Shown here: piece after piece, positions 44,058-62,929 of the stretch
How the letters are laid out: each line of letters starts with the position of its first letter
Numbering within the stretch: the first letter of the stretch is position 1
Assembly: GCA_963693365.1 (NCBI GenBank)
Contig: CAVNZM010000004.1
Span: 12,819,088 to 12,883,087 of the forward strand
Length of the DNA stretch: 64,000 bases
Reading direction: 5' to 3'
Origin: Amoebidium appalachense
Lineage: Eukaryota; Protista; Ichthyosporea
The notes under the pieces: model-generated
Told to the model about the DNA's origin: nothing
The model's database searches: none
What the model saw: only the letters and a program-made list of their open reading frames with translations
Made by a program: the position numbers and the translations under genes

Positions 44058-44072
44058 CATCAGCAATCTTGT

Positions 44073-44760
44073 CGAATCCATCCATAAGCCATCTAAGACG
44101 TCAGCATCTAATCAAAGTCATCTACATCCCACCCTTTAACCCTATCTACCCCATATCCCATCGAAAAGATGTCAGGATATTTTCGGACCATTTAAAGACG
44201 ACTTTCAAGTTATCATAAAGATGTCTGGAAATTTCCTGACATCTTTATATACATTTTTCCTGACATCGTTTTCTACACCTAAACCTAACCACTACCCATC
44301 CGTAACCCCCCCCCAATCCCCACCTTTTCTACCCCTAAAATATAGGTATCGTAAGATCCTGCACATCAAGACCCTTTTATGTCATCTTTAAGGCCACTTT
44401 AAAGAGCTCAAATAAGAAATTAAGGCAACAAACAGACATCTAAACGATATCGTTAAAGGGACATGATGTACATTACCTTATTGCAACATGTTGACTTCTC
44501 TGCATCTAAAACGGCACATAAGGAGAACTAAATGTTGCCTTTAAAGTATCTCGGGGCATCGGAATCCTTATTTCACGATGCCTTTATGTCATCAAACGGA
44601 TCTGTTGCCGACCATACAAAGATACCTTTTGGATCACTCTACATGATCTTTATTTCATGCACACCGATTCACGACATACACATGTCACCTTTATGTTTAC
44701 TTTGTGACAACTTGTGCAGCATAATAAGTCGACAAAACGATCACTACAAGCAATTTAATA
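44073..44760. repeat. Left subterminal region rich in short CATC/GATG motifs
   Basis: Many GACATC, GATGTC, CATCTA and CATCTT motifs echoing the TIR start. Confidence 0.55.
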
Positions 44761-45192
44761 TGATCATTATACTGTATTCTAATCGTCCAAAAATCTATAT
44801 TAAAGCATCATTTTGTGCCCCGGTTGATGCCAAGATGATGTCAGTTCCCCCCAGTTTCCCCCCCCCCCCCCCCCCCCTTCCCTTTCCTCCCCGTGGCTGC
44901 ACAGTGAAGTGTCGTTGACCGTGCTGAACAATCTTTAATTTCTTATGACACGTCCCACTGGGACGTGTCTCCACTCTTTACATCTACGGGATGTCCCACT
45001 GGGACACCCCTCTACTGTCTCAACTATTCAAAACATTAAAATTCAAGAAAAGAAACACTATAAATTGATGAGAAAAAAACAAAACTAAACAAAGTAAACA
45101 AACTTGCAAAATAAAATCCAAAATAATCCCCTACAAAAAAGGGGCAGTACATTTCTTGGGGGGAAGGGGGAGGGGGGGGGGGAGGTGGGGGG

Positions 45193-48100
45193 CTAAGGGG
45201 TGAATTTGGGCTTTTTGTGGGGGCTGGCATGACCCTGTTGGCGCCTTCTCTTCATCGCCGACCTGGTAAGGGGGGTCTCTCCCTCAGCCTCGTTGAACTC
45301 AGCCGGAGAGTCCTCACCTTGAAACTCAGCCGCCTCCTCCTCCACCCCCTCCACCTGCTGCACGGCCTTGCTGTCACCCTCCGTGCCGCCCACAGCGACA
45401 TCCTCGCCCTCCTTGCCGACCTTGGCCGCGTCCGTCTCGTTTTTACGTTGGTCCACCTTGGGGTCTGGGGCCTCCTTGTGCAGAGACGCGGCCTCCTTAG
45501 CGGCCTGCTCCTCCCGCTCCCGCTCCGCCAGTGCCTCTGCCTCCCTCTCCGCATCGGCCTCCTCCTGCTGCCTGCGCAACTCCTCCCCGGCCTCCCGCTC
45601 GGCTGTCACCATGTGGTCCTTCACGTAGTTGTCGTAGTTTGAGATGTACTGCAGGTAATGGCGGGCACAGAGTCAGATGCTTTACAGAAGTCAGTCTAGA
45701 AAACTTTTTCCAACGATGTGATTGTGTTGTTTGTGTTTTTTTTTTTATGGGGGGGGGGGGGGGGGGGGGGGGGGTTTTGCAGATGTGAACAAAGAAGTCT
45801 TTTATAAAACAGAACAGACTAAATGCTAACTAGCTCGAGTGTCGGCACGCTATAGTGTAGTCAGCCATAATCACACCATAAGGGGGGGGGGGGGGGGGGA
45901 GGGTAGGAATTATAATGAACTTAGCGTAAGTCTCGTGAGCCATGATGAAACACCCCACAGCTCAAGTGTCAGCATCCTATTGCCTAGCCAAAAGGGGGGG
46001 GGGGGGGGGGGGGGGGACCCACCAACTTGATGTTGCCTTCGGCCGCAGCACCGTCATAGTTGGGGTCGTCACATTCGAATTTCACGGGGGTCCACTTGTT
46101 GATGAGCTTGTGTTGGTTGGGGTCTCGCAGCGACACCTCGAAGCAGTTGACGACCAGCCGGAAGAATGCCCTGTGGTCTCTGGCGATATCCTGCCCAGTG
46201 CTTCTTTAGTGATCTGTTTTCAAAAGAGGTAAAGTTCGGAAGGAATACACATAAGGAAGAGAAGAGAAGAGACAGATAATGTTGTCGTCATATGGTCTTA
46301 CTGACATCCAATGGATGTCATTAGGATCATATGACGACAACATTATGGCCCTTCATGATGTAAGAATGTGACCGTAATTCTCTATGATGATGCTTAAAAC
46401 TGTCTTTATTCTTGAAATATTCCAAGCATTTGCAGACCTAGGAATATGCATCAATTTTTTTTCGATTCGATTCGTGGAATGTTCATGGTGGAGGGGAGCG
46501 GGGGGGGGGGGGGGGGGGGGGGGGGGGGGGAGAAGAAAGCGTTATGCAAGTAAATATATACGATGAAAGCAAGTTATTTGGGAAGTTAAACCGGTGATCA
46601 GAGGAGAACGTGGAAGGGTGAAAGGGAGTGTGTGTGTGTGTATGTGTGTGTACACACGTGTGTTGGTTGAAGAGCGAGTATGTGTGAGTGGGTGGTGGGC
46701 AGGAGGCAAGGGGGGGGGGGGGGGGGTCCTTTGATGTAGTCTAGACTCAGAATGTGTTGAAAGTGATTTGTTGGGGACATTACATACCAAGGCAGTCTTG
46801 TTGCCAAGGACAAGCCGCACAGCCTTCAATGAGATGCTGCTGAACAGGCGGGAAAACGGCTGGTACCCGAACGGGTTGCCCGTTTCAGGGTCGACAGAGT
46901 ACACGCGGCCGCACGGCTGGCCATTCAGCTTGACCTCATCCAGGAGGGCCAGCCACAGCGCTGGTCGCTCATCGGCAGTTGGGGCGTAGGCGACCAGCTG
47001 TGAATGTGTGTTTGAATGCAGCAAAAGAAAGGAAACAGAAGCGAGTGGTGGTGAAGCAGGTGGCGGTGGCGTTGTGGGGGGGGGGGGGGGGGGGAGGAGG
47101 GGGGGGGGGGGGGGGGGGGGGGGGGTTAGTCCATGATTGTGTATTACAGAAGACTGTCAATAAAATATTATATAAATACAATGAAAAGAAAGTATTATTA
47201 CTACATTACTACTTGAAACAGCTACATATCTCCATCCCTGTACAAATGACGTTAATGGCATACAAGTAGATTAGAACAAAACAGCTACATATCTCCATCC
47301 CTGTACAAATGACGTTAATGGCATACAAGTAGATTAGAACAAAGTAACCTGTGTGCTAGGATGCGTGTGAGAAGAGTTAAGCCCATTGTCATAGAAGGAG
47401 TCCGTTGAGTACGGAGGCGGGGGACGCGGGGGGGGGGGGGGGGGGGGGGGGGGGGGGGGGGGGGAATACATCGAGATTGGTCCCAGGTACAACGTACCCA
47501 GTCCTCAGGAAGTTGCGGACGTGCTGGTGGACATTGGACTTGATGGAGGTGATGCCCGTGCGGATTTTGGAGATATACTTCTGTGCGGGATCGCTACGCA
47601 CACAGTTGCGGATGATGTGGACCCACTTGGCCACGGCCTCCTGATTCAGCTTCGCGCTTGACGTCTCGACTTTCTGAAGAACCTCGACGAACTTTCCAGC
47701 CAGGTCCCCATCGTGGGCGTTGTTGATCTGGGGTGACTCCAGCACAAGGTGCTGGTAGATGTTGTGGGTCTTGGAGGACTTTTCCACATAGTCATTCTGA
47801 CGGTGATGGAAAATGTTAGAAAACAAGAATGACGATGTGAATAAATCTTGATGGAGCTATAAATCCTCCATGCTGGAAACGTGCTGTAGCAGTTGCTTTG
47901 AAATGACCAAGTTTGAATAGTTCCTTCAGTTTATCCACTTAGACAGAATAAGGGTGTGGATGTAGTAGGGATGGGTTTAGTGCGGGTAGGGGGGGGATGA
48001 ATGCATTAGGAGGTGGCAGCATGAGGTGGTGGGATGGCAACAATTCCTCCACAAGGATGAGCTTTGATCACAGAGATTGGTGGGGGGAGGGTTGTTTGAA

Positions 48101-61143: not shown

Positions 61144-61229
61144 ATTTTCTGTTTGTTGATGAGTGGGGGTGTAGGGGGTTTGGTTTTCACGTGTGTCAGT
61201 AGCCTGTAACATATAGGCGCTGTGCCGAT

Positions 61230-62912
61230 GTCAGAAGTTTAAGTGGACTGCAACCCAACCTTTTAGGTATATATTGACATCCAAATAGTATAGGTTTACT
61301 ACGAAAAAGATATCAGAACTTATCGTTATAGCATCTTTACATTCTCCTGCTGATATCATTATATACATGTTGACATCCAAATGGTATAAGTTTATGGCTA
61401 AAAAGATATCAGAACTTATCAATATAGCATCTTTACATTCACCTGATGTCCATCTTGCGATGCTTAAAAGTGCACGGAATCGATCTAGCCTGGGTCCAAA
61501 AGATGCCTCGAACCCATCCCAGGAATCTCATGATGACCATCCAAAACACATCAAAGGGACAATTGCAAGACACCATAATGTGCATATATAGATTCATCTT
61601 CAGACAACTAACGGCTCCTGAAAAGTGCATACAAGGACCACTTAAAGACCCTAGAGAGATGCTGTGGACTCCATTCTAGTATGAGAATTGCATCCAGCAA
61701 CATTATAGCATCTATATATGCCTATCATGTGCACCGGGTAATCCACAAACCATCTATGACGTCGTGGATGTGGACCATCGCAAAGATCACATAGAGACCC
61801 TAACTAGATATCATAAAGTGCACATGCTGTGCCTAGAACAGGGATAAATCAGGAATGATTATATAATATGCACCAGAAATACACTTAGACATCTGAGGGT
61901 ACCTAGGGGGTACATATGGATGGGAAAAGGATAGGATATTCAGAGATCTGTAATACCACATCATCAACACCATAGGTCCACATGTAGATGCCTTCAAGTG
62001 CACGGAATCGATCGAGCCAGGGTCAAAAAGATGTCACAAACCCATCCCAGAAACCTCATGATGACCATCCGAAAGGCATCTAAAATACCACGTAAAGGCC
62101 ATATAAGATGCAAATATGGTTTTCCCTCATGACAACTAAATGGTCCTAAAAGGTTCATTAACAGACCACTTAAAGACGTCAAAAAGATGCTGTATACCAG
62201 GAATAGCGTCCAGCAACATTAAAGCAACCATATATGCCTATCATGTGCACCACCCAATCCACATACCATCTATGACGTCGTGGATGAGGTCCATCTACAA
62301 GAGCACATACAGACACTTTCTCGATCATCAAAAGTGCATATGTTGTGCATATAACAGCGAAAAAACAATATGGATCGTATAAAATGCACTAAAACTAGTC
62401 TTGGACATCATAGGGGACTTAGGGGGTAGAAATGGATGGGAAGAAAATATGATCATATAAAGTGGTCCATATAATGTCTATGTGCACCGGAAATAAACTA
62501 GAAGTACACTTGCACGTCCTGGAGTACTTAGGGTGTACTTTGGGATGGGTACAAGAAAAGAGCATTTAATGTGGTCTTTAGATGGTCCATATCACCACCC
62601 AAACCCCACCAAATTGTGTTTGGAAAATTTTGAACATCGGGGCATTTAATATGCATTTAGGATGGGTTGTAGATCATTTCATGACACCATTGTAGATGCC
62701 TTGCGGTGCTGTTCTGGATGATGGATGATATCAAGTCCCCTTTATCCCCTCCTGGACATCATAGATGAGTTATGGATAGTGGCCATCCAAATTGTTTACG
62801 ACCCCCACATCCCATCTAGATGTCATCATGTAGGTAGGTTGTGGTGGATGTGTGGGGTGGATATGGTGGGAGGACCCCCAAAAGGTGTCCTGGATGGGAT
62901 CCGGATCGCCGA
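61230..62912. repeat. Right subterminal region with internal duplications
   Basis: About 61465-61935 is repeated, diverged, at about 61995-62450; a ~100-bp duplication lies in 61270-61450; dense CATC/GATG motifs. Confidence 0.7.
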
Positions 62913-62929
62913 ACAAGATTGCTGATGTT

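Follow-up and report, generated by a model that had tools for sequence, protein, structure and literature searches.

An 18.9-kb Plavaka transposon of Amoebidium with an intronless KDM4-like JmjC gene inside an intron of its accessory gene

Results

The window analysed here is a 64,000-nucleotide (64-kb) stretch of the Amoebidium appalachense genome that contains an 18.9-kb cut-and-paste DNA transposon. The element is bounded by 15-bp terminal inverted repeats (TIRs), the left one at 44058..44072 on the plus strand, starting with CATCA, and the right one at 62913..62927 on the minus strand, an exact inverted match; each arm occurs only once in the 64-kb window. A TT duplication flanks the element (44056-57 on the left and 62928-29 on the right), and both the exact TIRs and the duplication agree with the initial annotation. 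Insertion into the ORF of another element had also been claimed and was recovered here: the 5' part of a Copia Gag-Pol lies at 42330..44057 (plus strand), its final two bases being the left TT, and the right TT leads into the Copia continuation at 62928..64000 (plus strand) with Pfam integrase core and SH3 domains. In silico excision of the element with one TT restores a 933-aa Gag-Pol frame with zero stops, and three alternative junction offsets leave 4, 10 and 4 stops in the Copia reading. A pair of 15-mers alone could occur by chance in 64 kb; because the Copia ORF is repaired in frame, the insertion is not a chance arrangement. The termini (5'-CATCA..TGATG-3') and the 2-bp TT duplication are those of PlavakaB in the CMCT clade, and a Pfam profile search identified PF18759 in the transposase (E 9e-21), as expected from the annotated Plavaka identity. 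Judged by its sequence, the element is a Plavaka transposon with PlavakaB-type ends. Pfam gave zero recombinase matches in the 16 element frames scanned.

The transposase gene spans 51805..58946 on the plus strand in nine predicted exons (51805-52365, 52671-52829, 53127-53491, 53882-54129, 54451-54955, 55113-55267, 55522-55726, 56016-56268 and 58264-58946), with all splice sites predicted and none seen in reads. Its frame is interrupted twice in exon 4, at the G-runs 53991-95 and 54020-23, which reflects either decay or assembly error. The element had been described as complete, which is right for both ends and wrong for the transposase; owing to these two breaks, the present copy lacks the uninterrupted frame of an autonomous element. 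Read across the frame break, the pattern D..D..C(2)C..H(3-4)H..E is present (SDQT, ADWPE, CHQC, HFGGH and ESWERAH), and its D and E residues are presumably the catalytic ones. The sole C2H2 match falls in transposase exon 1, below the Pfam cut-off (E 0.011), and intron 8 contains a tandem array of a 373-bp unit (56607..57995, x3.7, 99%). The third ORF, previously labelled a zinc finger, is an intronless frame from the ORF list (ORF3, 59980..61143, plus strand, 387 aa) for which no family was found. It has no Pfam, PDB or atlas match and only weak, short PHROGs matches, and its cysteine/histidine content consists only of a C-x6-H-x4-C-x2-C cluster, which leaves the label unconfirmed. The left subterminal region (44058..44850) is rich in CATC/GACATC and free of CGC/GCG, and the right one (61144..62927) is CATC-rich with a direct repeat of about 480 bp at 75%. 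CATC occurs 24 times on the left versus 9.1 in shuffles, and 57 versus 24.1 on the right; for CATC and GACATC alike, none of 200 shuffles reached the observed count in either end region, the motif having been chosen from the same end regions in which its enrichment was computed.

The initial annotation counted three internal genes and placed the JmjC gene head-to-head with the transposase. We found four ORF units (gene A, the JmjC, the transposase and ORF3), and the gene opposing the transposase is gene A, a six-exon gene with an open frame of 601 aa that holds the JmjC in its intron 1. All gene A exons lie on the minus strand. Exon 1 (50102..50381, 93 aa) ends in a phase-1 donor and carries a PKRKKV motif, which we take to be nuclear-signal-like. 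Read-run joints define the phase-1 acceptor of exon 2 (48169..48533), and read runs also place exon 4 (46787..46997); the exon 3 (47470..47796) donor at 47470 was inferred from pieces in run X16 and the frame, with an alternative donor at 47498 also present in X9. Exon 5 (46023..46189) has joints in X9 and X16, the same runs in which the joint 45648/46023 leads to exon 6 (45193..45648), which encodes an acidic tail with a basic end. The likely poly(A) site is at 44910..44939 on the minus strand (T23 loose end at 44910, ATTAAA at 44934-39). Searches of Pfam and PHROGs, and atlas and word-index searches with exon 3, detected no homolog or DNA-binding domain for gene A.

In X9 and X10, and as a loose end in X11, spliced gene A joins 50102 to 48533 and omits the entire JmjC ORF. 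Since this is the only joint seen across intron 1, the divergent gene does not have the JmjC as its main product. Runs X9-X11 carry the label 'DNA?' and were treated as RNA, GT-AG joints being present in them and absent from X1, X5 and X3. Contig depths in X9-X11 were 358-505 for the JmjC, 8,900-11,300 for the skipping joint and 25-107 for neighbouring non-exon stretches, values that are unusable for ranking expression. The read-run comparison covered the left half of the element and ended before 53601-62927, the stretch with both transposase frame breaks, ORF3 and the right end.

The JmjC itself is an intronless KDM4-like gene of 315 aa (49009..49954, minus strand), with a predicted phase-1 donor after 49009. 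The annotation as KDM4-like was upheld by a Pfam match to JmjC (PF02373, E 2e-14), by best PDB matches to KDM4C/D/B/A (E 1e-17 to 5e-16, with KDM5 from 7e-8 down) and by a predicted model (pLDDT 79) whose top Foldseek matches are KDM4A. With residue roles as given in the accessible part of PMC6010108, the Fe(II) triad H188/E190/H276 is retained as H171/E173/H256 and the KDM4 zinc site C234/H240/C306/C308 as C213/H219/C286/C288. The 2-oxoglutarate (2OG) contacts Y132 and K206 are kept as Y111 and K188, and the N198 position is Ser181, a serine found in 11 of 104 relatives. K241 (K220) and R309 (R289) are also retained, as are Y157 and N270, and the methyl-lysine pocket is kept. Among the H3 arginine contacts, D135 is kept as D114, E169 is changed to Pro149 and Y175 to Met155; the F291 equivalent is altered, and S288A/T289V is present. 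JmjN gave no Pfam match, and a confident helix-strand at model residues 1-30 aligns with the JmjN of canonical proteins; PHD and Tudor were without Pfam match. Compared with the human KDM4D/KDM4A core, the protein shares the fold, iron triad, zinc site, methyl-lysine pocket and, with KDM4D, the alanine at position 288, but identity is only about 27-32% and the N198, E169 and Y175 equivalents differ.

From its sequence, the protein is KDM4-like with most catalytic residues, and its demethylase activity and H3K9/K36 substrate are putative. Because of the serine at N198 and the Pro/Met at the E169/Y175 equivalents, activity or substrate may differ. A translated protein that is no H3K9/K36 demethylase and instead targets some other mark or protein, or serves as a non-turnover methyl-lysine decoy, is quite improbable. 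The altered N198, E169, Y175 and F291 positions, a long branch outside canonical KDM4, the missing Pfam matches to JmjN, PHD and Tudor, and the JmjC protein Epe1, for which the accessible literature describes non-enzymatic anti-silencing, would all fit such a role; however, the iron triad, Y132/K206, the methyl-lysine pocket, K241, R309, D135 and the zinc site are all retained, and S288A/T289V resembles active KDM4D.

Phylogenetic analysis did not group the element JmjC inside canonical KDM4. Its sister is P0002 (98/90), in a region of long divergent branches lying outside canonical KDM4, where deep forks are weak. P0002, its nearest relative, is 38-39% identical and shares the core residues. 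The trees had 105 rows (quick tree) and then 46 rows, with midpoint rooting and no outgroup; they drew on 105, then 44, of 150 listed matches, with long proteins left out. P0001 and P0004, ranked high due to tandem repeats, were excluded. An exon-1 layout shared with P0002 was considered and is unsupported (BLAST E 0.74). A word-index search with the JmjC gave zero matches, 0 of 20 viral contig stretches contained a relative, and metagenomes gave 1 of 529, a contig of 3.2 kb on which the JmjC is split by an intron and has no transposon context. Viral structures resemble the JmjC only as generic cupins (12-17% identity).

The JmjC is covered within the element in six of eight public runs, from three of four studies (X1, X3, X5, X9, X10 and X11); contigs of X1, X9 and X11 link it to exon 1, and in X5 the left element end abuts a different flank. 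Therefore, the JmjC is a family cargo rather than a one-off. This agrees with the claim that it arrived with the element and disposes of its presence in this copy only; its origin in a nested element finds no support either, as no TIR or direct-repeat pair brackets it. X16 and X17 lack cover of the JmjC, and X5 of 52607-53288, which does not amount to absence. The differences shown between copies include zero stops and zero indels, and the 4 non-synonymous and 2 synonymous changes (729 vs 216 sites) are indistinguishable from neutrality.

These data bear on a somewhat unlikely alternative, namely that a captured intronless gene rides in intron 1 as a neutral passenger, its cover coming from unspliced or read-through gene A RNA alone, and is left untranslated because the exon-1 frame stops upstream. 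Besides the JmjC-skipping splice and the neutral-compatible changes, the contigs in X1, X9 and X11 run continuously from the JmjC to exon 1, as expected of unspliced RNA or DNA. A GC3 of 0.52 versus 0.70-0.81 in gene A, without CGC/GCG depletion, suggests a late arrival, and in X17 gene A exon 2 follows a different upstream sequence, which shows that some relatives differ at the 5' end. On the other hand, none of the differences shown disrupts the frame or a catalytic site, promoter-like and donor-like signals lie on either side of the JmjC, and the core residues shared with P0002 imply long selection in the lineage, not necessarily inside the element.

An initiator-like TCAGT and, 31 bases before it, a TATA-like hexamer (50036..50067, minus strand) form a possible promoter for the JmjC, whose ATG, downstream of this pair, is the sole ATG in the 5' part of intron 1. 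The JmjC and gene A exon 1 both end in phase 1, and the JmjC as an alternative first exon would give a predicted JmjC-accessory fusion of 823 aa with zero stops. These features, and a C-run after the predicted JmjC donor as after 5 of 13 other donors listed, support the fusion reading. As a donor, however, GTCAAA is weak, with two further phase-1 GTs nearby. No joint of 49009 to 48533 is listed in the read runs, where 48881-49012 is masked as repeat. The JmjC contig of X11 has 33 unplaced letters past 49013, which would fit this splice if contigs use 31-letter words, as assumed here; they are not decisive because X9 has 32 and the DNA-like X1 and X3 have 31 and 25. Splicing of exon 1 to the JmjC (acceptor near 49861) was also considered and is not seen in the read runs.

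The same signals could serve a stand-alone nested gene encoding a trans-acting enzyme of about 340 aa, untethered to gene A, as proposed for KDM4-likes of Amoebidium viral insertions. The frame is open to a stop of its own at 48935, the ATG and promoter-like pair are its own, JmjC-only KDM4-likes are frequent in Amoebidium insertions according to the accessible part of PMC11244446, and KDM4D functions without reader domains. We consider this unlikely, however: beyond 49009 the tail reads through an intron-like C-run as poly-proline, and the minus strand from 46405 to 50500 contains neither AATAAA nor ATTAAA, whereas gene A has such a signal.

Discussion

We tentatively favour, at somewhat less than even confidence, a PlavakaB family in which the intronless KDM4-like JmjC is a second product that would clear the element's own chromatin of repressive lysine methylation. 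The JmjC would likely be made from its own start and putative promoter, with splicing to gene A exons 2-6 also likely. The gene A part may bind the CATC-rich ends, as Spm TnpA suggests by analogy, and the predicted fusion could then remove repressive lysine methylation there, with H3K9me2/3 as the candidate target. A bolder, doubtful version is an exon-swapped self-targeting eraser: exons 2-6, as a putative DNA-binding body, would take either the nuclear-signal exon or a captured KDM4-like exon from the pool on which Amoebidium giant viruses also draw, giving a sequence-guided demethylase for the CATC-rich ends. If true, the exon-swapped fusion would amount to a naturally occurring tool for targeted epigenome editing.

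The literature already describes Plavaka elements whose cargo is TET, SET or a 2OG oxygenase, as it does KDM4-likes within viral insertions of Amoebidium; our literature search found no paper on a JmjC-bearing transposon. TET on fungal PlavakaB and SET plus 2OG oxygenase on red-algal Plavaka set a precedent for chromatin cargo. The accessible parts of PMC12730594 describe TET/JBP-bearing PlavakaB families in Agaricales that share the CATCA..TGATG ends, 2-bp duplication, PF18759 with C(2)C and H(3-4)H, large size and a 2OG-dioxygenase cargo; the cargo there is a DNA dioxygenase, whereas here it is a histone-lysine JmjC in an ichthyosporean, and neither 'JmjC' nor 'Amoebidium' appears anywhere in the paper's supplement. 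In the red alga Bostrychia, giant Plavaka (10.1101/2025.02.11.637652, accessible text) similarly measures 17.4-19.1 kb and has three accessory genes, chromatin-modifier cargo and internal tandem arrays, but carries an adenine methylase-SET and a ParB-2OG oxygenase, with 'JmjC' 0 times in the main text.

Spm, of the CMCT clade, likewise has a spliced accessory gene and motif-rich ends, but TnpA and VANDAL VANC are DNA-binding, TnpA requires host DNA demethylases and no eraser enzyme is carried; in Arabidopsis, TnpA activates Spm without H3K9me removal (10.64898/2026.08.24.746577, accessible parts). No homology between gene A and TnpA/VANC was detected. Known transposon counter-silencing relies on DNA-binding adaptors (VANC, TnpA), carried DNA dioxygenases and SET writers, and a histone-lysine eraser would add the missing class.

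The suggested Amoebidium link was correct: the accessible part of PMC11244446 reports KDM4-like JmjC genes in giant-virus insertions of this genus with a proposed anti-silencing role. They are divergent and carry JmjC without PHD/Tudor, as here, but are multi-exon genes in viral insertions, whereas the element JmjC is one exon in a DNA transposon. These findings suggest that DNA transposons and giant viruses of one close animal relative both recruited divergent KDM4s. Because Amoebidium can be cultured and reacts to methylation inhibitors (PMC11244446, in part), a single compact and transcribed element makes it possible to test whether KDM4-likes carried by parasitic DNA counteract heterochromatin; the accessible literature assumes, rather than demonstrates, that H3K9me3 silences transposons in Amoebidium. 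The Amoebidium 'Plavaka giant repeats' are tandem, intron-poor clusters of up to 50 kb with tyrosine recombinases, unlike the intron-rich present element without a recombinase match.

A second, multi-exon KDM4-like gene lies 34 kb away in the window and alone stands in for the viral-insertion KDM4-likes in our sequence comparison; it is 33% identical to the element JmjC and not its sister in the tree, and capture from this neighbour was rejected on these grounds. A host-type sterol methyltransferase gene separates the element JmjC from the virus-like block, and the nesting order is a single-exon JmjC domain in Plavaka and Plavaka in Copia.

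The element is a PlavakaB transposon inserted in a Copia ORF

The 18.9-kb element (44058..62927) carries an exact 15-bp inverted repeat at its ends (from 44058, and 62913-62927) with a TT duplication on either side, as the initial annotation had described. Removal of the element and one TT gives a stop-free Copia Gag-Pol reading of 933 aa, with stops at the three other offsets tried, which bears out insertion within another element's ORF. PlavakaB is defined, in the available text of PMC12730594, by CATCA..TGATG termini and a 2-bp duplication, and the element shares both. It is a genuine PlavakaB transposon. 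For CATC, a motif picked from the same element ends later tested, 24 occurrences were observed at the left end (9.1 in shuffles) and 57 at the right (24.1 in shuffles), and 0 of 200 shuffles reached either count. This enrichment extends to the gene A region (z 4.0). CATCAGC(AA) words also occur elsewhere in the window, at 18,552-19,296 and 23,302-24,049, one of them inverted at 24,049.

The plus-strand Plavaka transposase has 9 predicted exons (PF18759, E 9e-21) and the motifs SDQT, ADWPE, CHQC, HFGGH and ESWERAH. Its frame is broken twice, both times in exon 4 at G-runs; since a second window gene has a comparable G-run break near 12,300, assembly error is possible. The last transposase intron contains a near-identical tandem array (56,607-57,995; 373-bp unit, 3.7 copies), and red-algal Plavaka elements have tandem arrays too.

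The JmjC ORF is nested in the first intron of a spliced accessory gene

Splice and coverage evidence came from 8 of the 24 listed public sequencing runs. Gene A, a minus-strand accessory gene of six exons (45193..50381), showed GT-AG joints at five introns in run X9, and one X16 contig spans exons 2-6; none were among the joints listed for X1, X5 and X3 (15 of 472 joints listed in the comparison that included X1 and X5, with X1 counts incomplete). The joined exons encode an open protein of 601 aa, for which family and homolog searches gave no match. The first joint (50102 -> 48533), which X9 and X10 both show and of which X11 has a loose end, connects exon 1 (50102..50381) to exon 2 (48169..48533) and skips 1,568 bases in which the JmjC ORF (49009..49954, minus strand, 315 aa) wholly lies; no joint from exon 1 to JmjC was found among those listed in the runs compared. 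Because this joint skips the ORF, the single JmjC gene initially placed head-to-head with the transposase is two units: the JmjC is present, but the facing gene is the spliced gene A, and the JmjC is intronless and nested in its intron 1, an unexpected position. X10 and X11 carry an intron 1 variant that diverges from the window at 48,826 and continues into about 700 other bases, and X17 shows a relative in which exon 2 (48,533) is joined to another upstream sequence, a different exon 1, with a 2-base gap restoring the frame.

The JmjC is family cargo

The JmjC was covered in six of the eight runs compared (X1, X3, X5, X9, X10 and X11, from studies P1-P3), and contigs from X1, X9 and X11 link it with exon 1. 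All covering runs differ from the window at both shared and private sites and therefore represent other copies or strains, and the left end in X5 runs on into a non-Copia flank, so that the JmjC is not confined to this copy. A search for a repeat pair bracketing the ORF found none, which argues against a separately nested element. The KDM4-like JmjC is thus family cargo of the PlavakaB element. Among the listed rows (40 of 97) there are six JmjC differences, two synonymous and four conservative (I127V, D120E, A158V, L187I), with no stops, no indels and no change at catalytic sites. It is rather unlikely that the JmjC is an untranslated passenger; the ORF stays open in these rows, and two synonymous against four non-synonymous differences are too few to show selection.

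GC3 is 0.52 in the JmjC and 0.54 in ORF3 (59980..61143, plus strand, 387 aa) but 0.70-0.81 in gene A, and CGC/GCG is not depleted in the JmjC or in ORF3. Since the JmjC is unlike gene A in these respects, its composition suggests that it was captured later; a host paralog and a viral insertion are the candidate donors.

The JmjC is a divergent KDM4-like protein

The best PDB sequence matches are KDM4C, D, B and A. An alignment-based model (pLDDT 79, pTM 0.79, low at residues 38-73) matches KDM4 structures best, and it leans toward KDM4 because its input alignment was mostly canonical KDM4-like proteins. With KDM4A-numbered positions assigned by motif equivalence (the number mapping is ours) and residue roles taken from the available text of PMC6010108 and PMC13632499, the iron triad, Y132, K206, Y177, N290, K241, D135, R309 and four zinc ligands are kept, whereas N198 is replaced by Ser, E169 by Pro, Y175 by Met and S288 by Ala, the last as in KDM4D. 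Action on another substrate, or a non-catalytic role, is improbable.

Among 1.84 billion representatives, the closest genuine relative is Logan protein P0002 (39% identical), its sister in both trees; the two proteins fall outside canonical KDM4, each on a long branch. The element JmjC shares only 33% identity with the window's second KDM4-like protein. The element JmjC is not classed as a KDM4 ortholog. Further divergent KDM4-like JmjC proteins (P0005, P0006, P0008, P0093, P0112, P0150) include several from thrips and some with zinc-finger-like tails.

A possible fusion with gene A

Intron 1 contains a TATA-like and an initiator-like sequence 31 bases apart, and the first ATG after them is the JmjC start. 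A second transcript might initiate there, and a predicted splice joining exon 2 to the phase-1 donor that follows 49009, in a stretch passed over by the read comparison, would give an open JmjC-gene A fusion of 823 aa. The gene A body would tether this fusion to the element, where it would strip repressive H3 methylation; we take the element to work like known chromatin-cargo transposons. This whole proposal is our preferred reading, held tentatively. The same start would also serve a stand-alone JmjC enzyme, which we consider unlikely. Against every anti-silencing version, the silencer shown in Amoebidium is 5mC, with H3K9me3 not mapped, in the available text of PMC11244446, and Arabidopsis TnpA activates without H3K9me removal according to the accessible part of a 2026 Spm preprint (10.64898/2026.08.24.746577).

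As the initial annotation had stated, large Plavaka repeats and JmjC-rich viral insertions are known from Amoebidium: the sections available of PMC11244446 place JmjC within viral insertions and describe Plavaka repeats that carry tyrosine recombinases, and draw no link between the two. This paper alone was returned for Plavaka and JmjC together, and titles and listings on transposon-borne JmjC or Amoebidium chromatin gave no report of a JmjC-bearing transposon. There is no mention of JmjC in the main text, as available, of PMC12730594, PMC11512509, PMC12344493, PMC13317346, the Bostrychia preprint (10.1101/2025.02.11.637652) and the Spm preprint.

Neighbouring sequence

CGC/GCG is nearly absent from the Copia sequence and the element ends (0-0.3 of expectation); in Copia coding sequence (42,330-44,057 and 62,930-64,000) it falls to 0-0.07 with other CG contexts kept. 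This is the default methylated context in Amoebidium according to the text available of PMC11244446, and the Copia shortage may reflect its avoidance.

A host sterol methyltransferase gene (35,025-39,956, minus strand) matches an Amoebidium parasiticum protein in five stretches at 79-100%, intron read-through included, with one 87-aa exon 100% identical. The second KDM4-like JmjC gene (11,800-15,130, minus strand; PF02373, E 9e-12) is multi-exon and carries the G-run break near 12,300. Virus-like intronless ORFs occupy 1-9,000, with T5orf172 (E 0.0013) and DNA methylase (E 0.0078) matches, both below cut-off, and the rest without a match; the block looks like an endogenous giant virus. Virus-like ORFs that lack introns, and a KDM4-like gene of several exons, likewise occur in Amoebidium viral insertions, as far as the accessible sections of PMC11244446 describe them. 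The sterol methyltransferase match, the CGC/GCG shortage and this virus-like block together give good support to Amoebidium as the host genus. An intronless GPR1/FUN34/YaaH transporter gene (23,435-24,202, plus strand) and a PQ-loop ORF (29,412-29,816, minus strand) are also present.
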